DNA of 64,000 nt. Origin: an uncultured bacterium (GTDB lineage Bacteria; Babelota; Babeliae; Babelales; RVW-14). The stretch is taken from the NCBI GenBank assembly GCA_963759805.1, contig CAVXAT010000001.1, positions 295,915-359,914 on the forward strand. Reading direction: 5' to 3'. The notes beneath the pieces are model-generated. The model had not been told where the DNA came from, ran no database searches, and was given only the letters and a program-made list of their open reading frames with translations. A program made the translations under genes and the position numbers. This document shows, in pieces, positions 6,187 to 60,351 of this stretch (position 1 is the stretch's first letter; the number at the start of each line of letters is the position of its first letter).

Positions 6187-7743
6187 CTAAAAATTTGTAT
6201 CCAAGAATTTTAATTTTTCATGCCCAACGTAAATAAGTGGAATCCCACTTAAAACAGATTTCAGCCTCGCCCCATCCTGCATGATTTTTTTAAAGTAACC
6301 CATAAACCAGCTGTCATTCACGGAAAATATGATATATGCAGAATTCGCCTGGCAACCCGCTGGTTTATCCCGGCTCCCGGCATTACATGCCTTAACAATC
6401 CCAGAAAAAGTTTTATAACTCGAGACAAAAAACAGCTCTGAGCATATTTGTGGAATAAAAATGATCCTGCCAACTGCAGTTGGGTTTTGCGAATCCCCAA
6501 TACAGTTAAATTCAAAATAATTCTCTTGTTTTAACTTTTTTGCCCTGGAGAATTGAGAAATCTCTTGGGAAAAAGCTTTATTCAAAAAAATACGTTGCAA
6601 CACTTCAAGCTTTTTATAAAAACGGGGGATTTTTTCTACAAATGGCACGCAATGTTTTTTAACATAAATTTTTTTTATGCGACGTTGATTTACCCAACTC
6701 ACCGCCTGACAAATTTTTCCCTTAAATTCGTGCTGTGTCCCTATGAACAGATGTGCATTGTCAGGCAGAACGCTACTCCACAGCTCAATAAACCCGGGAT
6801 AGGTATTCAACGGAAAAGGAAATGAACTCTCCGGCGCAAGGATTATAAACTGCCTGTCTTCATCCCGTCTCTCCCACAACTTTAGATCACAAAGTTTTCT
6901 GTAAATCTGATACTCATAGCTAACCGAATTTTGGTCAAAAGATGCAGTATCCGGTTTTAGATAAATAAACTCGACGCCGTCTGCTGCTGCTAGTTTGCAA
7001 GCGGGCAAGCCAGACTGATAGCCAACTCCCCTGCCAAACAAAATACCTGCAAACACACATGTTTTCGTAAATAATTCAAAATTAACCAACGGGATTAATG
7101 GATTTAAAAACGGATAACCCTCTATTCTCCCCAAAAACCACAACGCATAATTTTCAAGCAGATAAAAATAGCAGTAGCAAGTAATAAGAAATATTGAAAA
7201 TTGTGCAGCACTATAACAGTAATAGTCGCAAGAAGAGAAATAGTCGCGAACTTTTCTGAAAATTAACTGCGTAACCCAAACCCACACAGCACTTGTAAAA
7301 GAAAAATAAGTTATGCTGAACAGATAGACAAAAATAGCAAAGCATGTGCCGGATTTTACTTTATCCAGAAGCAGAACCAATAACCAGATAAAATGGAATG
7401 AAAATACGAGCACGCCCCAAGCCAAACCGTACCAGAAAACAGAAGGCCCAAACTTGCCCGCTCGTGGTGAGTGCCGGCCGATCCCTCGATACACGCACTG
7501 CGTGCGCACTCGGGACGAGCGGCCGGTGTATCGAACCATGCGGGCATAAAATTTACTTGCGATGCTACCATTTAGCGTCTGTCCCACTTTAATTAAAACC
7601 CAGAAAACCAAAAATAAAGAGGGCAAAACAAGAAATCCAAGATATTCAGAAGAAAAGAAAGCCACATCATAAAGAAGCGCTGAGAGTAAAATAAGTAACC
7701 ATAAAAGAGATCCCGGTACCATTTTGATCTTTGGTTTCAGCAT
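6187..7743 (-). CDS. Apolipoprotein N-acyltransferase-like membrane protein carrying an in-frame palindromic insertion
   Basis: Multiple N-terminal TM helices; nitrilase-like motifs APES, YVKKHCVPFVE, QICSEL, VNDSWF resembling Lnt. Confidence 0.7.
   Translation of the reverse strand: MLKPKIKMVPGSLLWLLILLSALLYDVAFFSSEYLGFLVLPSLFLVFWVLIKVGQTLNGSIASKFYARMVRYTGRSSRVRTQCVYRGIGRHSPRAGKFGPSVFWYGLAWGVLVFSFHFIWLLVLLLDKVKSGTCFAIFVYLFSITYFSFTSAVWVWVTQLIFRKVRDYFSSCDYYCYSAAQFSIFLITCYCYFYLLENYALWFLGRIEGYPFLNPLIPLVNFELFTKTCVFAGILFGRGVGYQSGLPACKLAAADGVEFIYLKPDTASFDQNSVSYEYQIYRKLCDLKLWERRDEDRQFIILAPESSFPFPLNTYPGFIELWSSVLPDNAHLFIGTQHEFKGKICQAVSWVNQRRIKKIYVKKHCVPFVEKIPRFYKKLEVLQRIFLNKAFSQEISQFSRAKKLKQENYFEFNCIGDSQNPTAVGRIIFIPQICSELFFVSSYKTFSGIVKACNAGSRDKPAGCQANSAYIIFSVNDSWFMGYFKKIMQDGARLKSVLSGIPLIYVGHEKLKFLDTNF
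7455..7546. repeat. Palindromic module element (module A nested in module A), in frame in the lnt-like gene
   Basis: TGCCCGC...GCGGGCA termini; outer CGCTCGTGGTGAG...TCGAACC with an inverted inner CGCTCGTCCCGAG...TCGAGGG copy. Confidence 0.85.
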
Positions 7744-8191
7744 TCAAATTGCCATTCGCGTTACGCTCAAGCAAACATCTTAGATTACAAACAATCTGAT
7801 TACCATTCACCAAGCTGGCAGACAAGACCAAACAATCTGTCTTGCAGACAGATTGTTTGGTCTTGATTTCAGATTTTGCCTTGGGAGCAAATACTGTAAA
7901 TCGCGCAACGTTTGCATTTTTAATTTCAACTTCAGTTAAACAAAAATTCACATCAACATCTGTTGGTTTTTTCAATTTTAAAAAGGTATCAAAATTTTTA
8001 CAAGTCAAATCAACTCCTGAATTCAAAATTCTGTTCGTCAGATAAAACCGTTTATAAAAAAGTTCACGCTGGTACTGGACGTCACACATTAAACTCGACA
8101 CATGCCAACAGCGAATGGCGGCAAGTGACACAACAAATGAAACAATAAAAACAAGTAAAAGAGCGCTACCGCATGAAAGTTTGCTCTTCAT
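7667..8191 (-). CDS. PilX/GspK-like minor pilin or pseudopilin
   Basis: G-SALLLVFIV prepilin-like N-terminus; last of three overlapping pilin-like genes. Confidence 0.55.
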   Translation of the reverse strand: MKSKLSCGSALLLVFIVSFVVSLAAIRCWHVSSLMCDVQYQRELFYKRFYLTNRILNSGVDLTCKNFDTFLKLKKPTDVDVNFCLTEVEIKNANVARFTVFAPKAKSEIKTKQSVCKTDCLVLSASLVNGNQIVCNLRCLLERNANGNLNAETKDQNGTGISFMVTYFTLSASL

Positions 8192-8811
8192 GCTACAACC
8201 CTATTCCTAAATTTTATAAAAAATTTTTGTTCAAAAATCTTTTGCTCTTGCCCAGCCGTGCCTGGCGTTTTGTCCGTCGTAGCCTTGGCGAAGTCGGAAG
8301 CCACGACTTGTCCCTCGGAGCTACCTGAGCGGGGTGGGAAGGGCGAAGCCTGGGAACAGGTACTTTTGTAAACAACCCAAACGCCACTACATTCCAAAAC
8401 AAAACTGATCTCTTTTATAGATTTGCAAACAATACAGGATGTTCTAGAAATCCACACATGCTTTACAAAATCATACTCACCCTGTGCACGCATAAGGCCC
8501 TGATTTCCAATAAACCAAGAGACCCCAATGCTCTGCGGTACATTTTTGTCAATCAGGGTTAGTTTTTTAAAAACGGACTGCTGCAAATCCCAATCAGTGG
8601 AATACTGGCTGGCACTCATCAAATCTCTTTTTAGCAGATCGAGTGCAATGGTTTGTCTATGTAAATTTTCTTGCTCGGAAGAGACGTTCATAAACTTAAG
8701 CTGCGCTCGTGAAGCCACACCCAAGAACAGTACTGATATAAATGAAAATAGAGCGAGATAAACAGTAAATTCAACTAATGAAAAGCCTTTATTCTTCACA
8801 TACTCTTTCAT
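8188..8811 (-). CDS. Prepilin-type N-terminal methylation protein (PilW/GspJ-like) with an in-frame repeat insertion
   Basis: KGFSLVEF type IV prepilin motif followed by a hydrophobic helix. Confidence 0.8.
   Translation of the reverse strand: MKEYVKNKGFSLVEFTVYLALFSFISVLFLGVASRAQLKFMNVSSEQENLHRQTIALDLLKRDLMSASQYSTDWDLQQSVFKKLTLIDKNVPQSIGVSWFIGNQGLMRAQGEYDFVKHVWISRTSCIVCKSIKEISFVLECSGVWVVYKSTCSQASPFPPRSGSSEGQVVASDFAKATTDKTPGTAGQEQKIFEQKFFIKFRNRVVA
8255..8354. repeat. Nested palindromic element (module B containing 30-bp and 33-bp inserted modules), in frame
   Basis: Removing the two inserts restores GCCGTGCCTGGCGTAGCCACGAAGGGCGAAGCCTGGG, nearly identical to the reverse complement of 40808-40844. 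Confidence 0.85.
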
Positions 8812-9209
8812 ATCTCAAGACAACAATTTTTCCCAACCAACGATTTCCACTCTACTTTAACTTTTGTAACTGACTTATCTTTATCTGGTTGAGCAAGATT
8901 CTTTTGCCCAAAAGAGCTTGGCTCAAAACTAAGCCTAAAATTACGCCCATTACTGACAAAAATAGCTGATTCGCCGTTAGTCTTATTCAAACTACCCTGC
9001 TCCAACAATTCAACCGCCATTCCCAACGCCTTATCCCGCATATAAAAAGAGTCCTGTAGCTCAAGCAGTAGTGATTGCATGCGCATTAATGAGGAGATTA
9101 GTACCAGTCCTATAACAATAGCCACCATTAACTCTATTAACAAAAAACCTGAAGAGTGTGATTTTGCCATATCAAGCCATCTTTTAATCCCACAGTTTGA
9201 CTTTAACAT
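8808..9209 (-). CDS. Prepilin-type N-terminal methylation protein (PilV/GspI-like)
   Basis: SGFLLIELMVAIVI motif; true start may be the ATG at 9170. Confidence 0.8.
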   Translation of the reverse strand: MLKSNCGIKRWLDMAKSHSSGFLLIELMVAIVIGLVLISSLMRMQSLLLELQDSFYMRDKALGMAVELLEQGSLNKTNGESAIFVSNGRNFRLSFEPSSFGQKNLAQPDKDKSVTKVKVEWKSLVGKNCCLEI

Positions 9210-9274
9210 TCCAAATCCTATAAAATTATATTAGAAATTAAATATTTCGGGCCTTTTATAAAGCCGGGGGGGCT

Positions 9275-12198: not shown

Positions 12199-12263
12199 GA
12201 TAGATTCTTCTCCAGCTAACACGTAAAAAAATTATCCCTAAAGAAACCAAAAACCTCAGTTTG

Positions 12264-19540: not shown

Positions 19541-20544
19541 AAAGTTAAGCATGGGCTGGTAAATTAAGCATAAACTTGCTTCGAAGTGATGGCTTTTTTG
19601 GCAAGAAACAATATGCAACAAGTCCGGCAATAAGATTGACAACAAAGTTTGTTGGGCTGCGATGTCGAGAGTGCTCTATTTGACAGGTTTCTTTGAGTAT
19701 ACAGTTGACTGATTCTATGATTCCACGCTTACTAAGGCCAAGTCTATCTTCCATTTCCATGATTTGAATTTTCATTTTTTTCTTCAATTTTGTAATGAGT
19801 TTTATGCCTTTTGCAAAAAGCGCGTCAAAGAGCTTCTTTGAAATATATCCTCGATCTCCCCAAAGCTTTCCGAAGCACTTTCGGGCAAGGTTGGTTACTA
19901 CAGATGCGTTGTTGTCGGCAACATTACCAGGTGTGAGCATGAAAGATACTATCTCTCCGCACTAATTGATAATCAGATGAAGTTTAAATCCATAAAACCA
20001 TCCAGTAGACGTTTTTCCGCGTGCAGCAATTCCAGAAAACACCTTGTTTCTGTTGATTCGCAAATTATGACATACATGAAGCTTTGTTGAATCGATAAAT
20101 CCAAAGCCTGTACATTTGTTTTTACAACACAAATTCATAAAAATTGTTAACGGCACAAGAGCCTGCGGAACCAGCTCTATAAAGCGATTATAGCTGACGA
20201 TCCCGTCGAATGCGCCCTTCAAATCGCCACATTCTTTATAATATTTTTTAAAAGTACGATATCCAGAGTGATGAAAATAAATGAGTATCGTCAGAATGTC
20301 ACTGAGAGACATTCTTTTCTGTTCTCTTTTTACCAATGCCGATAAATCTGCAGAAATTGAATGTGCATCTAGATGTGTTTTAAAATCTTTACAAAAATTG
20401 TCTACGTCATAAAAAATTTGAGTTAAAATCATTTTACTTCCCTTTTTGAAATCCTTTTTTAGATTGGTTTTAACATTCTAAATCTATAGAGGATTTGCTT
20501 TAAGGGAAGTCCTTTTCAAAGAATTTTAATTGTCGAACTCAGGT
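19521..20544 (-). mobile_element. IS982-family insertion sequence (~1.0 kb)
   Basis: Terminal IRs ACCTGAGTTCGAC/GTCGAACTCAGGT; IS982-type transposase inside. Confidence 0.9.
19545..20432 (-). pseudogene. IS982 DDE transposase with an in-frame TAG at 19962-19964
   Basis: GWFYGFKLHLIIN*CGEIVSFMLTPGN reads through in one frame; GDRGYIS and IEHSRHRS motifs. Confidence 0.9.
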
Positions 20545-21669: not shown

Positions 21670-21787
21670 TCTATTTCTATTTAAATCTCGCGCTGTGAAT
21701 CAAAATTGCATCAATTGATTCAATTTTGATTCAATTGATGCAATTAATATTTCAATAGACTTCTTGCATAATTTGGAATTCTAAAAA

Positions 21788-21921
21788 GGCGCGCTCGTGG
21801 TTCCTTCGACAGGCTCCCAGGCTTCGCCCTTCGTGTCTACGCCGGGCACGGCAGGACGAGCGCCATCGAGCTGGCGCGCTCGTGGTGAGCTTGTCGAACC
21901 ATCACCGATAGGTGACGCGCC
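21788..21921. repeat. Intergenic composite palindromic element
   Basis: About 120 bp nearly identical to 40795-40913. Confidence 0.9.
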
Positions 21922-21952
21922 GGGTTAATGGACGACACGAGATAATTTCCCC

Positions 21953-40226: not shown

Positions 40227-40286
40227 TGTCATCCTGCTGCGTCCGCCGTAGCCTTGTGCGAAGGCCGGGAACTTGATTCAGGATCC
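40227..40286. repeat. REP-like palindrome GTCATCCTG...AACTTGATTCAGGATC with a nested 33-bp module B
   Basis: Insert CTGCGTCCGCCGTAGCCTTGTGCGAAGGCCGGG. Confidence 0.8.
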
Positions 40287-40307
40287 ATGGATTAATAAGC
40301 TCCCATC

Positions 40308-41786
40308 CTAATTTATATTCGAACCTAGTTTTATAAACAAAAAATCTGAGTTATCTGCCTTTTGCATATTACATAAAACATTTTTATCAACAGGATTACG
40401 CAGTTGCTTTACAAACATCTTGAAGTTATCACCTATTTTTGAAATATCAATTCCCCAACTATCATTTAAATTATTGGACGCAATATAATAAAGTTCATTA
40501 AAAGAAATCAATAAATGTTGATTATCTTTCTCTACAAAATCTTCCTGATTACAAAATCTACGCTCAAAAACAACCTTACCCAGTACATTATCCATATCAT
40601 CAAGCACAGTCCATTCTGTCCTGCTTTGTACAATATCAACAACTTTTCCGAAAGAAAGTTCTGCTTGAAAAACACCTGTTTTATCAAAGCCTGTTCGCTT
40701 CATAACAAGTTTTACATTGCCAAAATCATACTTAACAACATCGCCAATTCCATTACTCTCGTTTTTGTTATTAAATCTCTTCTGGCACTCGCATCCTTCG
40801 ACAGGCTCCCAGACTTCGCCCTTCGTGGCTACGCCGGGCACGGCAGGACGAGCGCCATTAAGTAGGCGCGCTCGTGGTGAGCTTGTCGAACCATCACCCT
40901 TGGGTGACGCGCCAGATTCCAGAAAAAGTCTACTGTCGGGCTTGCTGACCACCACAAGCCACTCCCAAACATTAGAATAATAATCAGGCTGCGAAGGCAA
41001 CATCGGGTCAATAACCGTTATATTATAAATTCCATATTTTAGTAGTTGGTAGATATCAGTTCCACCGGCAATATAAACAACTGTTCCATTATTCTTAGTT
41101 AATTTTTGAAGTGCAGCCAACGTAGATCTGTTCCAATCCTTCCAGCCATGTCCTGCAAGATAATTCCACATAATTGAATAAATCATACGCACAATTGGGT
41201 AATTTTTGGAATATTGGAGAAGTTTTTCAAACTTCTGGGCTGTTTTTGGATTAAAACAGAATTCAAATAAGTTATTCGCAACACAAAAAAGATAGTTCTG
41301 GGTTAAAAATGGATCTGAATGGGCAAAAAGAAGCTGGGCAAAATTTTTGTATTTACCTATGACGGTCAAAAAACTAGTACTACTTTCAACGTTATTAATC
41401 AACTCATCTGAAAATCCATGTAACTCAATGTATTCGATAAATTTACCAATATCAGTTTCAAGGTATGAGTAAATATTACAAAGTCGCTCTTTTGTTTTGC
41501 TGGTAAGTTTAAATTTGTACGATAAGAAATCAATGGGTTCAAGACAGAAAAAATCGATAACGCTTTTGGTCAAATACGGCTTTCTAGCTGTCTTTTCCAA
41601 TAACTTATTAAATTCATAAACATATCCATTATCAAGCCAATTTTGATCAAGATAATTTTGCATTCCAGAAATATCTAAGTTATCGAAAACATACTGAAAA
41701 CATGGATCACTTTTATCAACCCAGCGCTGAAAAACCACGCTACTGCACATCTCGTGTCCATATGAACTCATTACTACTCCTACCAA
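40308..41786 (-). CDS. Hypothetical protein, paralog of 38856-40181, with an in-frame repeat insertion
   Basis: Colinear similarity to the neighbour except a ~60-aa extra segment; start uncertain. Confidence 0.8.
   Translation of the reverse strand: MVGVVMSSYGHEMCSSVVFQRWVDKSDPCFQYVFDNLDISGMQNYLDQNWLDNGYVYEFNKLLEKTARKPYLTKSVIDFFCLEPIDFLSYKFKLTSKTKERLCNIYSYLETDIGKFIEYIELHGFSDELINNVESSTSFLTVIGKYKNFAQLLFAHSDPFLTQNYLFCVANNLFEFCFNPKTAQKFEKLLQYSKNYPIVRMIYSIMWNYLAGHGWKDWNRSTLAALQKLTKNNGTVVYIAGGTDIYQLLKYGIYNITVIDPMLPSQPDYYSNVWEWLVVVSKPDSRLFLESGASPKGDGSTSSPRARLLNGARPAVPGVATKGEVWEPVEGCECQKRFNNKNESNGIGDVVKYDFGNVKLVMKRTGFDKTGVFQAELSFGKVVDIVQSRTEWTVLDDMDNVLGKVVFERRFCNQEDFVEKDNQHLLISFNELYYIASNNLNDSWGIDISKIGDNFKMFVKQLRNPVDKNVLCNMQKADNSDFLFIKLGSNIN
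40795..40913. repeat. Composite palindromic element, in frame
   Basis: Near-identical to 21803-21921; encodes GASPKGDGSTSSPRARLLNGARPAVPGVATKGEVWEPVEG. Confidence 0.9.
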
Positions 41787-43719
41787 CGCAAACAGTTCAC
41801 ACTGAAATTAAACTACTAAAGAACATATACTAACATTCTAGATCTGCAATAAAAATCTAACAAAAATGGCTAAAAACAACGATTTTCTCATAATCCCCCC
41901 TCTATTTGCGCCTTACGAAAATATATTCTATAATTAACAATAGAATTAATCGCAAAATTAATTATTAAATAATGGAAGTTATATTTTTATTTTTTATTTT
42001 TTGGAGGTTATATCATGAAAAAGTCGACATTTATCACATTTCTAGCGTTTTTGGCATGCCAGACTTCTAATGCAATCTGTGCAATGCAACATACTGAGGA
42101 CGAAATTTCAAAAAGCCAAGCACCCGAAGCTCAATCCCCTCATTCTACAGAGCCCAATGTTGAGGCGAAGGAAGCATTGTATGCAGCTGCCGCCGAGGGA
42201 CAAGTAAAAACACTTGAGGCTTTTGTTGAAAAATTTGGAGTTAAGCAATTATTTAAACAAATCTTTTTAACGCCAATAACAACAGGTCCTGATGTCGATA
42301 AGACAGGATTGCACGTAGTTGCTGCTAATGGACACGTAGAAATTCTTAAGTATTTTGTTGATAAATTTGGACCAGAAGTTTTAAAGATACCAATAACAAC
42401 AGGTCCTGAGGCTGGAATGACAGCATTGCACATAACTGCCGCTCATGGACACATAGAAATACTTAAATATTTTGTTGATAAATTTGGGCCAGAAGTTTTA
42501 ATGACTCCAATAACAACAGGTCCCTGGGCCGGATGGACAGCATTGCACGCAGCTGCTAACGGATGGAAAGCATTGCACTCAGCTGCCACTAATGAACACG
42601 TGGAAATTCTTAAGTATTTTGTTGATAAATTTGGGCCAAAAATTTTAACAACACCAATAACAACAGGTCCCTGGGCCGGATGGACTGCATTACACCTAGC
42701 TGCCTCTCATGGACACATCGAAATTCTTAAGTATTTTGTTGATAAATTTGGGCCAGAAGTTTTAACGACACCAATAACAACAGGTCCCTGGGCCGGATGG
42801 ACTGCATTGTATTTTGCTGCCGCTAATGGACACATCGAAATTCTTAAGTATTTTGTTGATAAATTTGGACCAGAAGTTTTAACGACACCACTAGCAACAG
42901 GTCCTAATGCCGGATGGACAGCATTGCACGCAGCTGCCGAGAAGGGATGTGTGGAAATTCTTAAGTATTTTGTTGATAAATTTGGGCCAGAAGTTTTAAC
43001 GAGACCAATAACAACGAATCCTAATGCCGGATGGACAGCATTGCACTTAGCTGCCGCTAATGGACGCATGGAAATTCTTAAGTATTTTGTTGATAAATTT
43101 GGACCAAAAGTTTTAAACACTCCTATTAATAGCCCTAACACAAGGTTTCATAACTATACGCTTTTACACATTGCCGCAAGATATGGTTGCAATGAATTTG
43201 CTCAATTTCTTCTAAACAGTAAAATGGATCCTCGTATATTGGAATCCATCGCTCTCTTCCATGACACTGATACAAGAGATGTCACACCATGCACTCCTGC
43301 AAAACTTGCTTTCAAATTCAACCACCCAGACACTGAAAATTTAATTCTTCTGGCAATGACTAAGCCAATTAAAACATGTTTGGCATGTAATCAAGAATTA
43401 CATGCTGGTAACAAATTAATACGATTTGATTGCGGACACGCTGTAACAGGAGAAATCGAGTGTTTAACTAGGGTAGGTAATGCATTTGCTGACAAATGCC
43501 CATTATGCAACAAACAAAGAATTTTGGGACAAGAAAAAGTATTGACCGTATCTGAGGATTTTTTACAAAAGGCAAGGGCATCAGACCAACAGCCACAAAT
43601 TAATTGGTCGCCTAAAACGTTTTTTGCAAAAGAATGCGTAATTTGTGGCGATGACATAAAAGCCGGCAGCACTGTTTTACGTTTATGTTGCGGGCATACA
43701 TTGTGTAAAGATCCTATAT

Positions 43720-45103
43720 CAGGACTTTGCCCTGATTTCAAATAATTGATCCAATCAATTCTGCAGCAAAATCTTCATTGTTTTTTTGAAGCAATTTTGC
43801 GATTGCATGCGCACTTTGACCAAATGACCAATTTTCGAAAAACAAAAATCATTTGACAAAATCAACAAAAAAAGGCTCTCTTTTTTTAGGAGAAAATCAG
43901 TTAAATTTACCCAAAAAAGGAGAGCCCTATGATCATGTTACAAAGAGTAATAAAACTTTTAAAAAAAGTAAACGTTCAAATTCGTACTTATGTTGTATGT
44001 TTGATTCTTACAAGTGGACGAAAAAATTGTGCCGAGATGGCTCGTACTGTTGGCGTTTCACAAAAAGGGTTGTATGCATTTTTATCAAATGCAAAGGATA
44101 ATTCGGCAGAAATAGAAAAACATCTGATTGAGTTTGCAAAATCAACGAGAGATAAAAAATTTAAGCGCACAGCTGTGGTTGATCCAACGGCTCTAATAAA
44201 AAGATACGCACAGTTAATGGAAATGCTCTGTTACGATAAAGATGGTTGTACAAAACATGTTGAAAAATTATTGGTTCCAGTTTGTGTATCTATTGTCGAT
44301 CAAAATGTAAAAATTCCATTAAATGTTGATTTTTGGATACAAAGAAAAGCTCGCGGTAGAAAAAAATATAGATCAAAAGTAGAAATTGCGCAGGAGTTAA
44401 TTTTATACTTGATTTCAAAGGGAATTGAGTTTGATTTTGTGTCTTTGGATGGTGCATTCCCAACACCAAATATGTTTGCATTTTTTCAACGAAATAGACG
44501 GTTGAAGTTTACAATGCGAACGCCAAAAAGCAGATGCGTTGTTACAAGCGATGGGAAACGCATGCAGTTGCAGCACATTCCATCATTAAAGTTAACGCGC
44601 AATTCCAGAGAAAAAACTATAAAAGCCAAACTTTATGGCAAAACATATTTTTTTACTGCATACAAACGAAAAAAGCGCTTTGGGGGATGGGAGACTGTTT
44701 TTTTAGTAAGCAATATGAATTTGCCCGCGAAAGAACAAGTTAAAGCATTTAATTTGCGTTGGCCACAGGAAAAAATAAATCGAACGTCAAAGCAAAAATT
44801 TGGTATGCACCAATGTCAGGCATTGAAATTGTCAAAACAAAAAGCTCATATCATGGCAGGATACCTTGCTCATGCAATTATCGAAGTTGCGAATATTGAC
44901 AAACAGGAAGAAAGTGTCGATAAAATTGTTAATATTTTTAGATCCAACCATTTCGACGATCTGGCCGAGGCCATAAGAAAACCACCTAAAAATAAATCGA
45001 TGCCAAACGCTGGATACACCGAAGTTTCTTCTCAAAATCATGTTCAAATTTTTTACAACAATGCTGGAGAATTCAATGTTTTAAATGCGTAGGCAAGGTC
45101 CTG
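43720..45103 (+). mobile_element. IS4-like (IS701/ISH3-type) insertion sequence, 1384 bp
   Basis: IRs CAGGACTTTGCC/GGCAAGGTCCTG; 5-bp target duplication TATAT (43715-43719 and 45104-45108). Confidence 0.92.
43929..45092 (+). CDS. DDE transposase
   Basis: VVDPT, SLDGAF, RWPQEKINRTSKQ; stop codon runs into the right IR. Confidence 0.9.
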   Translation: MIMLQRVIKLLKKVNVQIRTYVVCLILTSGRKNCAEMARTVGVSQKGLYAFLSNAKDNSAEIEKHLIEFAKSTRDKKFKRTAVVDPTALIKRYAQLMEMLCYDKDGCTKHVEKLLVPVCVSIVDQNVKIPLNVDFWIQRKARGRKKYRSKVEIAQELILYLISKGIEFDFVSLDGAFPTPNMFAFFQRNRRLKFTMRTPKSRCVVTSDGKRMQLQHIPSLKLTRNSREKTIKAKLYGKTYFFTAYKRKKRFGGWETVFLVSNMNLPAKEQVKAFNLRWPQEKINRTSKQKFGMHQCQALKLSKQKAHIMAGYLAHAIIEVANIDKQEESVDKIVNIFRSNHFDDLAEAIRKPPKNKSMPNAGYTEVSSQNHVQIFYNNAGEFNVLNA

Positions 45104-45329
45104 TATATGTAGCATGAGTCTTGCTAAGTGTCCAATTTGCAGAGCTGCAAGAATAATTAAGGATGAAACAATCGTAACATACCCCGGGCCAGATACATCT
45201 GAGCCAGAAACAAAAAAATAAAGCGCGCAACGACTTATAAAAGCAACTGTACCGTGCTTAGAAATTAAATTGCAAAAACTAAATTGTTAAATAATGGAAG
45301 TTATATTTTTATTTTTTTGAGGTTATATC

Positions 45330-47594
45330 ATGAAAAAGTCAATCTTAATAACACTTTTAGCGTTTTTTGCATGCCAGACTTCGAATGGAATCTGCGCAAT
45401 GAAACCTACTGAGGGTGAAATCTCAAAAAACCAAGCAACTGATGCTCGATCCCATCATTATTCTACAGAACCCAATGTCGGATGGACAGCATGGCACGAA
45501 GCTGCCGCTGAGGGACATGTAGAAATTCTTAAGTCTTTAGTCGATAAATTTGGGAAAGATGTTTTAAAGACACCAATAACAACAGGCCATGATGTCGGAT
45601 GGACAGCATTGCACATAGCTGCCGATAATGGAGACGTGGAAATTCTTAAGTATTTTGTTCAGCTATTTGGACCAGAAATTTTAACGACACCAATAACAAC
45701 AAGTCCTGAGACCGGATGGACAGCATTGCACATAGCTGGCGCTAATGGAGACGTGGAAATTCTTAAGTATTTTGTTCAGCTATTTGGGAAAGATGTTTTA
45801 ACGACACCAATAGCAACAGATCCACTTGCCGGATTGACAGCATTGCACCTAGCTGTCGGAGATGGGCAAGTAAAAACACTTGCGTATTTTGTTGATAAAT
45901 TTGGGCCAGAAGTTTTAACGACACCAATAACAACAGGTCACCTTGCTGGATGGACAGCATTGCATCTAGCTGCCGCTTATGGGCAGGTAAAAACACTTGA
46001 GTATTTTGTTGATAAATTTGGGCCAGAAGTTTTAACGACATCAATAACAACAGGTCCTAATGTCGGACGGACAGCATTGCACACAGCTGAGTATTTTGTT
46101 GATGGAAAAACACTTGAGTATTTTGTTGAAAAATTTGGGCCAAAAGTTTTAATGAGACCAATAGCAACAGGTCCCTTTGCCGGATGGACAGTATTGCACA
46201 TAGCTGCCGAGAAAGGACGTGTGGAGATTCTTAAGTTTTTGGTTGATAAATTTGGGCCAGAAGCTTTAAAGACTCCAATAGCCGTAGGGCCTAATGTCGA
46301 TAAGACAGGATTGTACCTAGCTGCCGCTAATGGACACATAGAAATACTTAAGTGTTTTGTTGATAAATTTGGACCAGAGGTTTTAAAGACACCAATAACA
46401 ACAGGTGATAATGCCGGATGGGCAGCATTGCATGTAGCTGCCGCGAAGGGACACGTGGAAATTCTGATGTATTTTGTTGAAAAATTTGGGCCAGAAGTTT
46501 TAACGACACCAATAACAACAGGTCCCTGGGCCGGATGGACTGCATTGTATTTTGCTGCCGCTAATGGACACATCGAAATTCTTAAGTATTTTGTTGATAA
46601 ATTTGGATCAAAAGTTTTAATGACTCCAATAACAACAGGGCTTATTACCGGATGGACAGCATTGCACCTAGCTGCCGAGAAGGGACACGTAGAAATTCTT
46701 AAGTATTTTATTCAGCTATTTGGGCCAGTAGTTTTAATGACACCAATAACAATAGGTGATAATGCCGGATGGACAACATTGTACCTAGCTGCCGCCAGGG
46801 GGCGCGTGGAAATTCTTATGTATTTTGTTGAAAAATTTGGGTCAGAAGTTTTAAACACTCCTATTAATAACCCTAACTCAGAGTTTCATGATTATACGCT
46901 TTTACACCTTGCCGCAAGACTTGGGCACAATGAATCCGCACAGTTTCTTCTAACCAGTAAAATGGATCCACGTATATTGGAATCTATCGTTCTCTTCCAT
47001 GATCCTGACACGGAAGATGTCACACCATGCACGCCTGCGAAACTTGCTTTCAAATTCAATCACCCAGACACTGAAAATTTAATTCTTCTGGCAATGACTA
47101 AGCCAATTAAAACATGTTTGGTATGTCATAAAGAATTACATGCTGGTGACAAATTAATACGATTTGATTGTGGGCACACTGTAACAGGAGAAATCGAGTG
47201 TTTAACTAGGGTAGGTAACACATTTGCTGACAAATGCCCATTATGTAACAAACAAAGAATTTTGGGACAAGAAAAAGTATTGACCATATCTGAAGATTTT
47301 TTACAGAAGGCAAGGGCATCAGATCAACAACCGCCAATTACGTTAGGTCAACAACCGCCAATTAATCCTTTACCTAAAACATTTTTTGGAAAAGAATGCG
47401 TAATTTGTCGCGATGGCATAAAACCTGGCAGCAATGTTTTACGTTTATGTTGTGGACATACGTTATGTACAAATCCTATGTGTAGCATTAGTCTTGTTAA
47501 GTGTCCAATTTGCAGAACTGCAAGAATAATTAAGGATGAAACAATCGTAACATACTCCGGGCCAGACACATCTGAATCGGAAACAAAAAAATAA
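45330..47594 (+). CDS. Secreted ankyrin-repeat protein with two C-terminal RING-like domains
   Basis: About 13 ankyrin repeats, mostly 39 aa; CLVC...CGH...C...CPLC and CVIC...CGHTLC...C...CPICR. Confidence 0.92.
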   Translation: MKKSILITLLAFFACQTSNGICAMKPTEGEISKNQATDARSHHYSTEPNVGWTAWHEAAAEGHVEILKSLVDKFGKDVLKTPITTGHDVGWTALHIAADNGDVEILKYFVQLFGPEILTTPITTSPETGWTALHIAGANGDVEILKYFVQLFGKDVLTTPIATDPLAGLTALHLAVGDGQVKTLAYFVDKFGPEVLTTPITTGHLAGWTALHLAAAYGQVKTLEYFVDKFGPEVLTTSITTGPNVGRTALHTAEYFVDGKTLEYFVEKFGPKVLMRPIATGPFAGWTVLHIAAEKGRVEILKFLVDKFGPEALKTPIAVGPNVDKTGLYLAAANGHIEILKCFVDKFGPEVLKTPITTGDNAGWAALHVAAAKGHVEILMYFVEKFGPEVLTTPITTGPWAGWTALYFAAANGHIEILKYFVDKFGSKVLMTPITTGLITGWTALHLAAEKGHVEILKYFIQLFGPVVLMTPITIGDNAGWTTLYLAAARGRVEILMYFVEKFGSEVLNTPINNPNSEFHDYTLLHLAARLGHNESAQFLLTSKMDPRILESIVLFHDPDTEDVTPCTPAKLAFKFNHPDTENLILLAMTKPIKTCLVCHKELHAGDKLIRFDCGHTVTGEIECLTRVGNTFADKCPLCNKQRILGQEKVLTISEDFLQKARASDQQPPITLGQQPPINPLPKTFFGKECVICRDGIKPGSNVLRLCCGHTLCTNPMCSISLVKCPICRTARIIKDETIVTYSGPDTSESETKK

Positions 47595-48159: not shown

Positions 48160-48819
48160 CTAAAACTTAAAACCTAACCTTTTCAGCCCTTGTCTCAGTT
48201 CAAACAATGGCAAGCCTAAAACTGACGTATATGATCCATTAATACTTTTTAAAAACGCCTGCCCTACTCCCTCAATAACGCCGCCACCACATGCATGCAA
48301 TGCCCATGGCTCTTTTCCAAAATAAAAATCAAAACTCTCTTCGTCGATTGAAAATTCCACTTGCGCACCAGTTGCCCAACATTGCCTTTTTTCAATTTCC
48401 CAATGAGTCCTACCAGATTGCTTCATAAGTTGCAAACAGCAGCCTGTAAAAACATCTATGGGCTGATCACGTAAAATTCTGAGCATCTCTTTTGCATGTT
48501 CAAGATCTCTTGGCTTACCAAGAATCTGATTTGTTCGAACAGTTTTTATTAAAGTGTCTGCAGTTAAAACAAAAATTCTCTTCTCTTTAATTTGACTTAC
48601 TTCGGGAAACTGCAGATGCTGCATCTTATCGCAAGCAATTGCGATCACATATTTTTCAAAATCATCGGATGGTTCAACAACAGATTCTGCACTTTTGTGC
48701 TCCAAAACTTTAAATTTAATATCGGCTAGTTTTAACAAATTTTGTCTTGGCTGTGATTGCGACCCAAGATATAAAATGTCTCGATACGAAGTATCTCGAG
48801 ACGAAGTATCAGTTTTCAT
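48160..48819 (-). CDS. maf: Maf family nucleoside triphosphate pyrophosphatase
   Basis: LYLGSQSQPR, TADT, ILGKP, INGSYTSVLGLP; start 48819 overlaps the dprA stop. Confidence 0.88.
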   Translation of the reverse strand: MKTDTSSRDTSYRDILYLGSQSQPRQNLLKLADIKFKVLEHKSAESVVEPSDDFEKYVIAIACDKMQHLQFPEVSQIKEKRIFVLTADTLIKTVRTNQILGKPRDLEHAKEMLRILRDQPIDVFTGCCLQLMKQSGRTHWEIEKRQCWATGAQVEFSIDEESFDFYFGKEPWALHACGGGVIEGVGQAFLKSINGSYTSVLGLPLFELRQGLKRLGFKF

Positions 48820-50089
48820 ATTTTTCCCATGCACCCGTAAAATTTTGTTTAACTTTACCCTCAAGCTGCAAATTAAAAAGTTTATCCTGCAACTCATCAA
48901 ATTTCAGGCCTGTTTTTATCAAGAGTTCATCAAGCGTGTACGATTTATCCAGATTACGCAAAATCCAGGCTTCGCTTTCAGCTACGCCGGACACGGCAGG
49001 AAGATCCTTCGATACATTTTGCTCAGCAAGCTTCGCAAAACACTCAGGATGAGCGGGATTAAGTAGGCGCGCTCGTGGTGAGCTTGTCGAACCATCCGTC
49101 GTAGCCTTGGCGTAGACGGACGCGCCGGGTTGCTGTAAATGTTCCCCAAACTCTTCTAGAATATCATTTGCATCACTGACGGGCTTTGCGCCCTGCTTAA
49201 TTAACTCATTGCACCCGGCACTCAATTTATCATCAATCCTGCCCGGAATTGCAAAAACGAGCCTGCCCTGCTCCAATGCACAGCGCGCTGTAATTAAAGC
49301 ACCACTTTTCACCGCAGCTTGAACAACGAGGCAGCCATGGCTTAAGCCTGATATAATACGATTTCTAGCAGGAAATGTTCCCTTATCCGGTCGTCGATTT
49401 AGAGGGAATGGCGAGATAACTGTTCCTCCACTATTCACAACCGTTTTAAACAGATCAGTATTATTTTCAGGATAAGGACGTAAAAGACCGGAGCCCAAGA
49501 CCACAACCGTTTTGCCTGCGGAATTTAACGTTGTTTGATGCGCCATCGTGTCAGCACCGATAGCACCGCCACTAACTATCGCCCATCCATTTGAAACAAG
49601 CGTTGGAATAATAGTTTGAATTGCATGCAAAGCATATTCGTCGGCAGATCGCGCACCAACTACTCCAAAATATTTAATCCGCTGATGGTCAAACATGGCA
49701 CCCGAAACATACAGCACAATCGGTGGAAAATGAATTTGACGCAAGATTTCCGGATATTCAGAACTTAAAATATCAATAATCTTTATGCCGTTTTTTTCTG
49801 CCAACACCAACTCTGTCTCTAAAATTTGCGGATCAGAAATACAATCATAAAGTTGTTGCGCACAGATTTGCGATAAACCAAATCTATTAACAAAATCAGA
49901 TATCGAATAATCGTAAATAACTTGCAGATCTAAGTTGATACCGTTTTGAGCAATCTCAGACCAGTCCGGATCGAATAAATTTGGATTTTGGTCCAGAAAC
50001 AGTTTGTGTAATATTTTAAAAACTGTTGCCGGACCAACTTTTTCAGCAAGCGATAGATGAAGTAGTACTGCTGTGTTTTTGTTATGCAT
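48809..50089 (-). CDS. dprA: DNA-processing protein DprA with an in-frame repeat insertion in the linker
   Basis: VVGAR, IVSGGAIGAD, FPARNRIISGL, SGALITA, GCNELIKQGA, C-terminal wHTH. Confidence 0.93.
   Translation of the reverse strand: MHNKNTAVLLHLSLAEKVGPATVFKILHKLFLDQNPNLFDPDWSEIAQNGINLDLQVIYDYSISDFVNRFGLSQICAQQLYDCISDPQILETELVLAEKNGIKIIDILSSEYPEILRQIHFPPIVLYVSGAMFDHQRIKYFGVVGARSADEYALHAIQTIIPTLVSNGWAIVSGGAIGADTMAHQTTLNSAGKTVVVLGSGLLRPYPENNTDLFKTVVNSGGTVISPFPLNRRPDKGTFPARNRIISGLSHGCLVVQAAVKSGALITARCALEQGRLVFAIPGRIDDKLSAGCNELIKQGAKPVSDANDILEEFGEHLQQPGASVYAKATTDGSTSSPRARLLNPAHPECFAKLAEQNVSKDLPAVSGVAESEAWILRNLDKSYTLDELLIKTGLKFDELQDKLFNLQLEGKVKQNFTGAWEKYEN
48965..49126. repeat. Array of four palindromic modules in frame in dprA
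   Basis: Contains GGCGCGCTCGTGGTGAGCTTGTCGAACCA and TCCGTCGTAGCCTTGGCGTAGACGGA. Confidence 0.9.
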
Positions 50090-50125: not shown

Positions 50126-52694
50126 TTACTCTTTCGGTTCTTTTGATTTCGACTCAACTTTTTCTGTCTCTATTTTAGTAGTGTCACCAGAACTGGTGTC
50201 ACCAGAACTGGTGTCACTAGAACTAGTGTCGTCAGAACCAGCTCCGGAATCTTCGACTTTCTCAAAAGCCTTAACCGCCAACAATGTTTGCGACTCGTCA
50301 AGTCTTACTAAGCGTACGCCGGCAGCCTGACGTCCCATAGTACGAACCTCTTGCGGAGATAAACGGATGATCTTACCATTTGCGTCAATTAATAAAACCT
50401 CTGACTGATCAGTAACTTGAACCAAGCCGATTACAGCTCCATTTCTGTGCGTAGTTGGAATAGTTCTGACTCCCAATCCACCACGATGGGCAATTCTGAA
50501 ATCAGCAATTTTAACTCGTTTTCCATAACCCTTTGCCGATGCAAATAAAATATCACCACCATCTGAGATAATTTCCATACCAACTACAGAATCATTTGCT
50601 CTCAATTTAATTCCACGTACACCTGCAGCCTGTCTTCCCATGGATCTGACCTCTTTTTCATCAAATCTTATTCCTTGACCTTTGCTGGTTGCAAGAATAA
50701 TCGAGTCAGTACCGGAGCTCAATCCGCAGAACGCAAGTTCATCCCCTTCATCAAGAGAGATTGCCCTAATTCCGGTTTTTCGGATTTTTGCAAACTCCAT
50801 CGCATCCGTTTTTTTAATGACACCATGTTTTGTTACCATAACAAGAAATTTATTTTCAAGTTCTCTGGCGCAAAGCAGTTTGACAACTTTTTCTTCCTCT
50901 GGCATCTGCAGCAAGTTAACTATTGCACGGCCTTTTGCAATTCGACTTCCCTCCGGAACTTGGAACACATCCAAGCTGAAAATTCTGCCTAAATTTGTGA
51001 AAAACAGAGAGTTCGTCGTGATTTCTTGTAACAAATGCATCCTGAATAACATCATCCAACTCTTCAAGATCTGTTATACCCTGCTTACCTTTTCCACCGC
51101 GATGTTGAAGTGTGTATGTTTCTAGAGGGACTCGCTTGATGTACCCACGACGAGTCAAGGTAACAACAACATCGTCATCTGGTATCAGATCCGCTTCACT
51201 TAGAACATCAACAGCACCTTCGATTTTTGTTTTACGAGGATCGGCATATGAGGCTTTGATCTGCTCAAGTTCTTTGACAATCTCTTTGACAAGCTCTTTT
51301 TCGCTTCCCAAAATTTCTTCCAGTCTTGCAATAATTTTTTTAATATCAGCTAACTCTTCATTAATTTTGCCACGCTCAAGCCCGGTCAAGCGCTGTAAAC
51401 GCATATCAAGAATGGCTTTGCCCTGTTTTTCCGATAGATTAAATTTCTTGTTAAGATGTACAATCGCTTCTTCGGCCGTTTGCGATGCCTTGATTAAAAC
51501 GATTACCGAATCAATATTATCAAGAGCTATAATCAGACCATCAAGAACGTGTGCGCGGGCTCTGTTTTTATCAAGATCAAACTCACATCGTCTTGTAATA
51601 ATCTCTTTGCGATGCAAAATAAAGTAATCAAGCATTTCACGCAAAGTCAGGAACATTGGCTTATTATCATACAGAGAAAGCATAATAATCGACATTGATG
51701 TCTGCAATGAAGTGTGTGTATAAAGCTGGTTAACAACCACCTGAGGAATTTCACCACGTTTGAGTTCAATTACAAGACGGATACCTTCTCGTGCCGACTC
51801 ATCGCGAATATTTGAAATGCCTTCAATGACTTTATTTTTAACTAAATCAGCAATTTTTGTAATCAGATCAGATTTATTTACCTGGTAAGGAATCTCTTTA
51901 ATTATGAGTGCTGCACTCTTTTTATCCTCTTCAACATCAATCACACCGCGCATAATAAACTGGCCATGACCGGTGCGATACCCTTTTACAATCCCACCTC
52001 TTCCACAGATAACTCCACCGGTTGGAAGATCCGGACCGGGAATAATTTCAAATAATCTGTCTTCAGAAAGATTGGGATTTTTTAAAATTTCAATACAGGC
52101 ATCAACAACCTCTCCAAGATTGTGTGGGGGAATAGAGGTTGCCATACCAACTGCAATACCTGTTGAACCGTTTACAAGTAAATTTGGGACCCTGCTAGGT
52201 AAAACCGTTGGTTCTAATATAGTTTCATCAAAGTTTGGTACAAAATAAACAGTATCCTTTTCGATATCTGCCAAAAGCTCTTTTGCAATTTTGGCCATCT
52301 TTACTTCCGTGTATCGCATAGCAGCTGCAGCATCACCGTCTATCGACCCCCAGTTTCCCTGACCGTCAAGGAGGGGATAGCGCTTGGAAAATGTCTGCAC
52401 AAGACCAACCATAGATTGATAAATTGCAGAGTCACCATGTGGGTGGTAGTGACCAATCACTTCACCAACTACAGTGGCAGATTTTCTGTAAGATTTATCG
52501 TGGTAGTACCCTAGTTTGTGCATAGCAAATAAGATACGTCGATGTACAGGCTTTAAACCATCGCGAACGTCGGGAAGCGCTCTGCTGACAATGACAGACA
52601 TTGCATAATCAAGAAACGATGTTTTTAATTCTCTCTCAATCGAGAGTTTACTTACCTTTTCTAAATTTTTTTCATCTTTAGGACCGTTAGTCAT
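50126..52694 (-). CDS. gyrA: DNA gyrase subunit A, frameshifted near 51005-51011 (two overlapping ORFs)
   Basis: RDGLKPVHRR, HPHGD, AAMRYTE, GyrA-box QHRGGKG; the CTD continues in the next frame as LFFTNLGR. Confidence 0.95.
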
Positions 52695-55937: not shown

Positions 55938-55972
55938 AGTAATCTCCTTTAATGAAGAACCCAACTTTGTAA

Positions 55973-57937: not shown

Positions 57938-59029
57938 ATGAATTCAAGGATAAAGTATTTACTTGCATTATCGGTTATGTTAATTCTGCTTATATCAAAA
58001 ATCTTTGCTGCCGAGCAGGCTCCTGATATTAGGTATCAACGGGTATTTTTTGTACATGATTGTCCAATATGTCTTGAGACCTTGACAGCTGATGACACCG
58101 TGCAAACCACGTGTAGGCATCTTTTTCATCGACGCTGCCTTGATGGAGCACTAAGAAGAAATGATGTATGTCCTTCATGTAGGCATAACTTTGGGACTCC
58201 TGCCGCAGCGCATCCAGAGATTGTAGCACCCGCTTGTTGTGCTGCTGCCGCACTGCCTGTAGCTCCTGATGTTCCAGTTCCTCATCCGATTAATCAAGAA
58301 TTTGTTGATGCCTCCTTACATGGAAATGGTGCCAGGGTGCATGAACTTCTTGTTGCCGGTACCGATGTAAATTCTGTTGACTCAAATGGACGTACTGCAC
58401 TAATGCAGGCTTCTATGCAAGGGCATATTGCCATTGTACAAGAACTTCTTGCCGCTGGCGCTGATGTTAATAGTGTAGCTGTACCACGGGGTTATATAAG
58501 GAATGTAGGTCCTTTCGCATTGATGCTTGCTGCTGGTAATGGCGATATTGCCATTATACGGTTGCTTATTGCTGCTGGCGCTAATGTTAATGCTGATAAC
58601 GGTGGTTTTACCGCATTGATGATGGCTATAACAAATAGAAACGAACATGAGACTGCTACTCCAATCATACAAGAACTTCTTGCCGCTGGGGCAGGAGCAA
58701 CCATTAACGCCATTAACCAAGGTGGGCAAACCGCACTGTACATGGCTGCCCAAATGGGCGATACCGCCGCGGTTCAAGCACTCCTTGCCGCTGGAGCTAT
58801 TGTAGATCGTGGTAAAGGTACTGCATTGTGGATTGCCATTGAGAGAGGACATGAGGCTGTTATACAATTACTTGTTGGTGCTGGGGCAAATGTTAATGCC
58901 TATGGGCCAGATGGAAAAACTGCATTGGAGATCACATTACAAAGACGTAATGGATACATGGGAAATCGTGTGGAATATATTAAATGGTCTAATATTGAAA
59001 GAATTCTTAAACAAGCAGGCGCTTTATAG
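57938..59029 (+). CDS. Secreted RING-H2 plus ankyrin-repeat protein
   Basis: CPIC...CRHLFHRRC...CPSCR (C3H2C3), ~6 ankyrin repeats, signal peptide. Confidence 0.92.
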   Translation: MNSRIKYLLALSVMLILLISKIFAAEQAPDIRYQRVFFVHDCPICLETLTADDTVQTTCRHLFHRRCLDGALRRNDVCPSCRHNFGTPAAAHPEIVAPACCAAAALPVAPDVPVPHPINQEFVDASLHGNGARVHELLVAGTDVNSVDSNGRTALMQASMQGHIAIVQELLAAGADVNSVAVPRGYIRNVGPFALMLAAGNGDIAIIRLLIAAGANVNADNGGFTALMMAITNRNEHETATPIIQELLAAGAGATINAINQGGQTALYMAAQMGDTAAVQALLAAGAIVDRGKGTALWIAIERGHEAVIQLLVGAGANVNAYGPDGKTALEITLQRRNGYMGNRVEYIKWSNIERILKQAGAL

Positions 59030-59094
59030 TCAAAAAAGGCTTTGCCTAAACGACGGACAAGCACCATTTTTTTATTTATTTAGGAGGTTATAAC

Positions 59095-60171
59095 ATGGAA
59101 AGTGGATTTTCAAAAACAAGTATTATTTGGGCTATTCTTTTGTTCTTTTATGTATCAATAGATGCCATGACGCCCGAACAACATGAACGCGTACGACAAT
59201 CTTGAATTCTCAGAAGCCAAGTATTGCAAAACAATCCCAACCCAGAAGCTGCTGTGCAACCTGTACCACAAAATCAAAAATGTCAGATTTGTCTTGATGA
59301 TAAAACCATTCAAGACTTCAGTATCTTGTCATGTGGACATACTTATTGTACTGATTGTTTAGTGCACGTAATTGATTTGGCAATTCATGAACACAACCCA
59401 GGCTGGCTTATATGCCCAAATCAACAATGTAGACAACCATTTAATGAATATGATATCAAAAGAATTACGAATAATGATCGTGAAAAAATAGATTTGATTG
59501 CTGCAATTAAATTGCAAAAATGGGTAGCTATGCAACCTAATGCAAAGCATTGCCCAACACCGGATTGTTCTTACTTATTCATAGACGAAGAACAATATCC
59601 TCAATCAATCAAATGTCCGCAATGTGCACACGAATATTGTTCAAATTGTCTTTTGCCACATCCAATGCAGATATCATGTAAAGATGCTAAAGAACAGCGT
59701 GTATCTGATAAAAAAAGTGAAGAGTGGAAACAAGAATACACGAAACCTTGCCCTCGATGTGGAACAAACATTGAAAAGGGAGAGGGTTGTCTCTATGTTA
59801 CTTGTACCAGGTGTGGACTTGGATTTTGTTATAACTGCTTTGGAACCCATCATGTAACCGTATGCGATCTTCCAGCGGCACAACCAAGACAAAGCTTACA
59901 AGAACATCCAGCAGACGAAGCTGTAGCTCAAATGGAAGGGCATGCAGAGATGTTTCGTTGCGAACAAAGAGCACGTAAATTGGAAGTAATGCAAGCTGCA
60001 GACAGAGCACGCCAAATCCGAGAAGCTCGCGTAATACAAGCTTACGCATGGAGAAACAGTCTTTTCGAGCCAGGTGACGCCCCACGCCTAGGCTACAATT
60101 TGAAATTTCCAGGGTTAATGGGACCGCAAAAACAAGGACAAAAAGATTATCACCAATGCCTTCACAAATGA
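59095..60171 (+). pseudogene. RBR (RING1-IBR-RING2) E3 ubiquitin ligase-like gene with a damaged 5' end
   Basis: SD plus ATG at 59095; frameshift in the signal peptide and TGA at 59203; intact RBR ORF at 59224-60171. Confidence 0.8.
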
Positions 60172-60222
60172 AGATTGCTAAGTAAAGATAGCAATACATT
60201 TTTAGATAAGCACAAATCACAG

Positions 60223-60251
60223 GCCGGCATAAATTTAATGTTTATGTCGGC
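60223..60251. terminator. Hairpin downstream of the RBR gene
   Basis: GCCGGCATAAAT...GTTTATGTCGGC. Confidence 0.5.
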
Positions 60252-60280
60252 TGTTTACTTTTGAAACGAAGATGGCTTAA

Positions 60281-60351
60281 CCCATCGCTCGGCTTGTCCG
60301 ACGTAGCCACCTGGGCGAAGGCGGGAAGAGCGACTGGAACGGCAGGATGGG
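60281..60351. repeat. Intergenic nested palindromic element
   Basis: CTTGTCCGACGTAGCC...GGCGAAGGCGGG inside a TCGCTC/GAGCGA stem. Confidence 0.7.

Follow-up and report, generated by a model that had tools for sequence, protein, structure and literature searches.

The stretch of DNA analysed here (G000:C1:295915-359914; 64,000 nucleotides, referred to below as the window) belongs to an uncultured bacterium of the Babelota, whose genome assembly comprises 1.5 Mb at 37% GC in 21 contigs. It carries seven GC-rich islands (58-69% GC, compared to 37% for the window), all found at the positions given in a preliminary description made from the sequence alone, and four of the seven lie within stop-free open reading frames (ORFs). 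The islands are composed of small hairpin modules, two of which, modules A and B, were recognised in that description along with the covariation of the A stems, and genome-wide pattern scans bear these out. As read from the sequence, module A consists of a CCGYTC tag, two bases, a 3-bp stem, a GA/GA tandem mismatch and a loop of 5-76 nt, and module B of a short tag followed by a 6-bp stem, an internal loop of the GTA/GAA type and a loop closed by GC; in both, the mismatches are G-A rich on one strand only. The GGCGCG...CGCGCC scaffold with interchangeable hairpins is likewise present. A third hairpin family of the CGTC/TGTC type, here called module C, was not named in the preliminary description and has 76 heads with a TGTC tag in the genome. 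Modules also combine into two recurring larger composites, E1 and E2, each with its own imperfect terminal inverted repeats; the E1 terminal word may resemble the ends of RPE-1. The features of the window, with the evidence on which each was drawn, are the following.

7446..7565 (ends approximate), minus strand: E2 composite island, a module A (GGT/ACC) with an inverted A (CCC/GGG) in its loop
8251..8356, plus strand: module B with two further B-type inserts (sequence, congener alignment)
8269..8298, plus strand: nested 30-bp module B at GT|AGC of the outer B (counted from the sequence)
8306..8338, plus strand: nested 33-bp module B in the loop of the outer B (10 genome copies of the empty-loop word)
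21756..21925, plus strand: intergenic E1-type composite (sequence, E1 comparison)
21817..21852, minus strand: nested 36-bp module B at CCT|GAG of a module A (junction scan)
40228..40295, plus strand: intergenic module C, of the type flanking an Ssn-like gene, interrupted by module B (sequence)
40237..40269, plus strand: nested 33-bp module B in that module C (8 empty module-C sites in the genome)
40771..40932, minus strand: complete E1 composite, two A tag to tag, one nested B, imperfect terminal inverted repeats
40809..40844, minus strand: nested 36-bp module B at CCT|GAG of a module A (junction scan)
48809..50089, minus strand: dprA, single copy, host of the island at 48965 (family match)
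48965..49129, minus strand: E1-derived composite of 165 bp, two A and two B, in frame in dprA (congener alignments)
60280..60356, plus strand: intergenic module B within a further GC-rich inverted repeat (sequence, relaxed B scan)

Besides the dprA island, the E2 composite (the island at 7455) is in frame within ORF 6187-7743, which has no Pfam family, the island at 8251..8356 is in frame on the minus strand near the C-terminus of ORF 8188-8811, and the complete E1 is in frame within ORF 40308-41786. This last ORF and its neighbour at 38856-40181 are adjacent paralogs of ~440-490 residues with no Pfam family, and E1 is present in the second only. The composite at 21756..21925 runs from a terminal word at 21756 through a partial A and an inverted A with a nested B to the GGCGCG scaffold, which holds an A and the TCACC-GATA-GGTGA hairpin; directly to its left lies an AT-rich imperfect palindrome (21690-21750). 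The island at 40227 is a module B seated within a module C hairpin.

Scanning the whole genome for module A gave 99 matches, 93 of which were kept after discarding five CAC-stem and one TTT-stem matches by eye as artefacts, compared to one match each in the reversed and the complemented genome. When pairing was not required, the closing bases in 72 of 95 A heads were still the reverse complement of the head's 3-bp stem (GGT/ACC, CCT/AGG or CCC/GGG), and the 23 non-closing heads were, by reading, mostly matching the inner CGA word of a nested insert. Module B has 75 strict matches (controls 1 and 1) and 128 relaxed ones (controls 2 and 2). That the modules insert into each other, as the preliminary description held, is evident from 46 B inserts that nest cleanly and fall into 19 junction classes, with 0-2 nt of junction ambiguity and with several junctions at the mismatch (CCT|GAG, GT|AGC) or the loop of the host hairpin; these come from a B-anchored scan, which superseded an automatic comparison of empty and filled sites that mixed true inserts with tandem-duplication artefacts. 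A further 15 of the 128 B copies abut tRNA 3' ends, at 14 of the 42 tRNAs. Since the A/B islands cover just 9.7 kb, compared to 188 kb of non-coding DNA, nesting seems to lie well above chance, and hairpins are likely to be truly targeted for insertion, although this falls short of proof because whole composites spread together and earlier inserts offer neutral ground. Tandem arrays of tRNA fragments were also observed beside an intact tRNA (G000 C19:8440-9300 and C14:13118-13700); every fragment holds a module B in the D-arm region or the T-arm, and therefore B also enters tRNA hairpin arms, with local duplication.

Islands in genes and empty orthologous sites

Genome-wide, 152 islands were counted, 47 of them inside predicted genes, 92 intergenic and 13 at gene edges. 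Genes were predicted with a purpose-built dicodon caller (1340 genes, 88% coding), and a few of the 47 intragenic islands fall in tiny or doubtful ORFs. The hosts named by NCBIfam include alaS, proS, mnmA, miaB, uvrC, dnaE, transketolase, prs, ligD, gnd, rlmN, truA and dprA, as well as mevalonate kinase and phosphomevalonate kinase, and 11 of the 12 host genes tested for a second copy have none, transketolase having a distant paralog; alaS, proS, dnaE, uvrC, mnmA and dprA are among the single-copy hosts. Compared to the congener G002, 33 insert-bearing genes are still conserved, with medians of 0.079 differences at second codon positions and 0.457 at fourfold sites, and 496 other genes 0.063 and 0.439. 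Insert-bearing genes are thus slightly more relaxed (p=0.008), though misalignment close to the inserts may contribute to this.

The comparison with G002 spanned 1.37 Mb of ~1.5 Mb and placed both flanks of 88 of the 152 islands. At 30 of the 41 alignable coding sites G002 has no module, and at the other 11 it does, which upholds the earlier claim of recent in-frame insertion adding new peptide. The empty orthologous sites that had been proposed as a check do exist: the dprA linker, for instance, is free of the island in G002, G003 and G001. Here, 55 element-coded residues stand in place of a 26-residue native linker present in G002 and G003, and judging from alignments the insert appears to occupy a loop. 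Many insertions, like this one, replace native sequence instead of adding to it cleanly. The island at 7455 amounts to a net gain of 66 bp over G002 with native sequence replaced, and the E1 at 40771..40932 to a net gain of 180 bp; near-clean insertions were found in alaS, rlmN and gnd, and replacements at other sites. The inserts are presumably translated into the host proteins.

Stepwise growth of composites is visible in two genes. In uvrC, a dimer of A is common to G000 and G002, and G000 has gained a 36-bp B at GT|GAG inside it; in dnaE, G002 carries module C, and G000 carries B inside C. The mnmA gene (L018) and its G002 ortholog hold different A/B composites at the same spot, which suggests either a hot spot or divergent remodelling. 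In an ABC-F gene (L015, G000 C1:255726-257516), an E1 near the 3' end adds 106 bp, not a multiple of three, and supplies a new stop, so that the protein is shorter than in G002. E1 copies in genes have the same orientation in 16 of 17 cases, although the window copy is stop-free on both strands; TGA in some E1 terminal variants may explain part of this bias.

Elsewhere in the window, a single additional base compared with G002 splits gyrA (50126-52694) into two overlapping ORFs, which is probably a fault of assembly or sequencing. Eukaryote-like RING/IBR and ankyrin-plus-RING proteins are encoded at 59224-60171, 42015-47594 and 57938-59029, as would be expected of a host-associated bacterium.

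Small GIY-YIG genes beside the hairpins

The preliminary description reported no mobiliser in the window, and indeed no GIY-YIG or Y1 transposase was found among the 58 window ORFs scanned, because the window edge excludes the GIY-YIG candidates located elsewhere in the genome. A nuclease gene flanked by the modules, sought genome-wide, does occur outside it. Besides uvrC, the host genome has five small GIY-YIG genes: two of UPF0213 type bracketed by inverted A, one of them 29 kb upstream of the window, one Ssn-like gene bracketed by module C, and two Slx1-like genes that come after a tRNA and B. A UPF0213-type protein of this genome is encoded at C1:266297-266587. The same three hairpin-gene pairings recur in relatives, and among named homologues of the small nuclease the closest comes from Candidatus Babeliales. 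Proteins linked to A match UPF0213 structures (E 4e-22) and those linked to B have Slx1 as their best match (E 2.5e-10), the two profiles being related to each other. In a tree of 80 rows, a quick tree on a subsample, the B-linked group and the C-linked group are each set off by a supported branch from the UPF0213-type rows.

The pairing between gene and hairpin is shown by a cross-table of loci. A neighbours the gene in 77 and B in one of the best 80 of 547 UPF0213-type loci, a set drawn from Proteobacteria, Nitrospirota, Chloroflexota, Myxococcota and others, compared to two with A and 67 with B among the best 80 of 212 metagenome matches to an Slx1-like protein, and one with A and two with B among 13 Ssn-like loci. 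At 45 of the 80 UPF0213-type loci, A lies forward upstream and reversed downstream, and B is mostly upstream only at Slx1-like loci. A stricter A pattern still marks 53 of the 80 UPF0213-type loci versus none of 69 distal windows. Furthermore, a sense tRNA precedes 36 of the 62 Slx1-like loci with enough flank versus 0/76 UPF0213-type loci. Across 41 genomes, the 15 with a UPF0213-type gene all carry A (median 24 copies), and all 10 without A also lack the gene.

Congeners differ in which whole cassettes they carry. The orthologous G002 site lacks one A-flanked cassette, and the C-flanked cassette occupies the loop of a hairpin that G002 has intact. Over 35 A cassettes, conservation ends one base outside the tag, and target duplication was not found above the level of shuffles. 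In G002 (L145:11880-12560), an entire A-flanked nuclease cassette was observed nested in a long inverted repeat derived from module C. Slx1-like cassettes (L251-L328) carry a 10-nt word that begins in the tRNA CCA, 40-150 nt upstream of the gene, and in 37 of 47 distinct loci, with 10 word variants, its perfect reverse complement immediately precedes the second B hairpin; cross-locus pairs with a different word match in 27 of 1842 cases. By pairing with the tRNA-CCA junction, the complement before the hairpin might serve as an inbuilt guide that exposes the tRNA end in the form of a flap. A plasmid search with the Slx1-like protein gave no match.

Proposed mobilisation and insert length

Modules A and B are likely to be dispersed selfish DNA hairpins, of which the window islands are gene-less copies, and likely also the recognition sites of the GIY-YIG nucleases they flank. 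By analogy with SsnA, the probable route of spread is a nick placed next to a hairpin by the nuclease belonging to it, followed by host repair through which the unit is copied, in many cases to a further hairpin. A brackets UPF0213-type genes in inverted orientation, and B forms an outward-facing pair before Slx1-like genes, often starting in the tRNA CCA end. The nuclease would bind its own hairpin on single-stranded DNA and nick beside it, as SsnA does with NTS, after which host repair, through strand invasion or template switching and often at another hairpin, would copy the unit to a new site, leaving no target duplication and often losing local sequence. Repeated rounds would produce nested composites that later spread as units. 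Copies would land at any length, and in genes only those that are stop-free and a multiple of three, and that fall in tolerant loops, would survive, giving rise to new peptide segments in core proteins. We favour nick-and-repair because it would account for the lack of duplications, for the replacement of native sequence, for arms that can be swapped and for nesting. More tentatively, and with rather less than even confidence, stand-alone UPF0213 and Slx1-like genes may be the mobilisers of two undescribed, transposase-free families of single-stranded DNA elements, each with its own mismatch-containing hairpin and preferring hairpin targets, including tRNA arms.

Several points weigh against nick-and-repair by these nucleases. 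To our knowledge, a lone GIY-YIG domain has no strand-joining activity. Folding energies of the modules are weak (z from -3.2 to +0.7), with G-A pairs lying outside the energy model, and 67 of the 128 B copies are neither cleanly nested nor at a tRNA end. Of the two Slx1-like genes in the host genome, one is truncated and the other cut by the contig end, and the Slx1-like loci elsewhere were gathered as matches to one protein; moreover, the hairpin detectors were built after viewing related loci. Some 16 of the 26 genomes without a UPF0213-type gene still carry A (median 2, up to 50 copies), and the counts over the 41 genomes treat related genomes as independent. The terminal inverted repeats of E1 and E2 are unlike A or B, and another enzyme may move the composites. 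Lastly, it is cleavage by SsnA and not mobilisation that Chenal et al. (2025) demonstrated (PMC11893778).

The hairpins could instead be nuclease sites that are spread by a separate mover, which may be a transposase of the DDE or IS200 type that works on the repeats at the outer ends of the composites, or simply by host recombination, with the nuclease cassettes being passengers or domesticated restriction enzymes for single-stranded DNA. We consider this unlikely, though it accounts for the distinct imperfect terminal repeats of E1 and E2, the genome does have five Y1_Tnp matches and several DDE genes, and SsnA restricts transforming single-stranded DNA in vivo (PMC11893778). None of the five Y1_Tnp genes is bracketed by A or B, however, and Y1/IS200 genes were rejected as module partners on that ground; one IS200 copy lies near a tRNA-linked B, but its identical twin copy does not. 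The window has three DDE transposase loci (19545-20432, split in two ORFs; 43929-45092; 61436-62488), and the E1 and E2 terminal words were not seen at the ends of these three as inspected. Solo B units, moreover, move without E1 or E2 termini, and CGTC repeats were reported as unlinked to transposases by Di Nocera et al. (2013, PMC3733652).

The preliminary description went further, proposing modules that are built to codon length as part of a system evolved to add peptide segments to proteins. Its observation that clean inserts are multiples of three, at intergenic sites as well, holds within the window, where all five measure 30, 33, 33, 36 and 36 bp, but not genome-wide, where non-coding nested inserts of 31, 35, 37 and 44 bp exist. 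Tabulated mod 3 against G002, net differences at all placed sites amount to 34/3/4 in coding and 12/15/13 in intergenic DNA. When coding sites are limited to internal ones, no closer than 25 and 45 codons to the ends of the gene, multiples of three make up 31 of 32 differences versus 12 of 36 at unique intergenic loci (Fisher p=2e-8). The intergenic distribution is uniform (12/13/11, p=0.92), a uniformity partly confounded by unrelated indels at ~80% identity. Within the genome, where 64 of the 128 B copies have an empty site to compare, nested B inserts are multiples of three in 19 of 20 coding cases and in 19 of 44 non-coding ones, the other 25 being of other lengths. Inserts in genes are thus filtered for frame. 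In favour of design, 36 is the modal length of nested B (23/46), reached by both the 8-nt and the 9-nt loop variants, and 7 of 13 non-coding junction classes are multiples of three (p=0.14 versus one third), with a mild excess of 33- and 36-mers among these classes that may reflect a mild length bias beside selection. The 36-mers, however, stem largely from one composite lineage, A loops of 5, 20, 22, 24, 31, 36 and 37 nt give mixed lengths, and insert-bearing genes are, as noted, not more constrained than others. Design for codon length is therefore largely refuted by the present data and strikes us as very improbable; codon-multiple lengths likely reflect selection in genes.

A further reading, in which the host keeps the modules as structured RNA for stability, termination or regulation, is very improbable. 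In its favour, RNA could adopt the covarying stems and the internal loops rich in G-A, and B adjoins tRNA 3' ends as described above and seems enriched between convergent genes (27 of 88 non-genic copies versus ~12% of intergenic bases). Against it, Rfam has no match in the window, there is no sense-strand bias (B 40 sense and 40 antisense, A 30 sense and 46 antisense), the congener does not share most of the sites and copy number ranges from 0 to 98 among relatives.

Relation to known palindromic elements

Palindromes inserted in frame are already known from Rickettsia (PMC10969869) and from the CGTC-tagged repetitive extragenic palindromes, or CGTC REPs (PMC3733652), and the analogy to both drawn in the preliminary description is supported. 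A and B work like the Ssn/NTS, CGTC-REP, Rickettsia palindromic element (RPE) and RAYT systems, apparently without being members of any, and are placed outside them because they do not pass the tests on the SRM motif, the CGTC structure, RPE1 and RAYT.

SsnA binds its hairpin as single-stranded DNA and cuts a few bases upstream; its authors note a layout like that of insertion sequences, with no mobility demonstrated (PMC11893778). Like the systems described here, Ssn (cd10448)/NTS-SRM combines a single-domain GIY-YIG gene of ~95 amino acids with flanking oriented hairpins that have an unpaired 5' tag, and with many dispersed gene-less copies (PMC11893778). A single-domain GIY-YIG gene flanked by its own repeat is likewise found at the A (77/80) and B (67/80) loci. 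Judging from tag and motif, module C and its gene probably constitute an Ssn/NTS-like system. A and B differ in that their partners belong to the UPF0213-type and Slx1-like branches and in their conserved G-A internal mismatches, and B further in keeping to a single flank of the gene, frequently beside a tRNA end. The A- and B-linked partners also separate from the CGTC-flanked group, which we take to be Ssn. NTS rarely occur in genes (2%; PMC11893778), compared to 47 of the 152 islands here. The SRM motif is absent from all 152 islands, the 80 A-linked and the 80 B-linked loci, but it is insensitive, occurring in just 3 of 13 Ssn-like loci.

CGTC REPs share with the present modules tagged hairpins, dimers, insertion into other palindromes, the missing link to a transposase and in-frame copies in DNA-repair and tRNA-related genes (PMC3733652), and dispersed multi-copy palindromes with dimers and intragenic copies are found here as well. 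In contrast to their perfect 8-9 bp stem and 4-5 nt loop (PMC3733652), module A has its CCGYTC tag, a bulged stem and a loop of 5-76 nt, and module B has no CGTC tag. Matched to the full structure (an unpaired CGTC/TGTC/CCTC tag, a stem of 8-9 bp, a loop of 4-5 nt and a tail of CCA), A and B fail, and module C fits by inspection. Deep nesting of several families together with nuclease partners is not described for CGTC REPs in the available part of PMC3733652. RPEs are palindromes of ~150 bp that interrupt unrelated housekeeping genes in frame, in a genome that is reduced and AT-rich, and encode a recurrent peptide (PMC10969869), and in-frame insertions in unrelated housekeeping genes that are absent from orthologs occur here too; the long elements of this genome, unlike RPEs, are assembled as mosaics from small modules that nest in one another and have candidate cognate nucleases. 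The RPE1 model TIGR01045 has no match in the genome at E<=1, and NCBIfam has no family for two insert peptides.

In REP/REPIN-RAYT systems, an autonomous gene is similarly flanked by inverted hairpins, with non-autonomous dimers and recognition of hairpins on single-stranded DNA (PMC3733652). Here, the partner is GIY-YIG and not HUH, unlike RAYT (TnpA-REP), there is no GTAG tag, and Y1 genes are not bracketed by A or B. As to the traits of miniature inverted-repeat elements moved by DDE transposases, the A cassettes have no target-site duplication, and E1 and E2 do have terminal repeats, with no partner seen at the three DDE loci inspected. Stand-alone prokaryotic UPF0213 and Slx1-like proteins, with PDB entries 1zg2 and 1ywl, have been treated as vertically inherited, probable repair enzymes (PMC1564403); the genes described here are, unlike that view, patchy, multi-copy and flanked by hairpins. 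No account of hairpin partners for UPF0213 or Slx1-like genes was found in the literature searched, where the relevant papers were those on Ssn, CGTC REPs and GIY-YIG phylogenomics, with figures, some supplements and most subscription journals lying outside the search, and term searches in 12 of 14 Ssn and four CGTC-REP supplements returned neither the motifs nor the subfamily names.

What is new here is the genome-wide census, the test of frame against a congener and the three-way cross-table of hairpins and nucleases. The literature found gives no established way of mobilisation for coding palindromes of the RPE or CGTC type, and no assigned substrate for UPF0213 proteins. The candidate pairs of enzyme and substrate, consisting of fewer than 100 residues and ~30 nt, are readily testable with oligonucleotides, and may represent new sequence-specific nucleases for single-stranded DNA beyond Ssn. 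In this bacterium, new peptide is built up stepwise in essential proteins and at high load, in dozens of genes within 1.5 Mb, and the empty sites of congeners allow the steps of this build-up to be dated. If true, UPF0213 and Slx1-like mobilisers would supply the missing mechanism for protein-coding palindromes of the RPE type.

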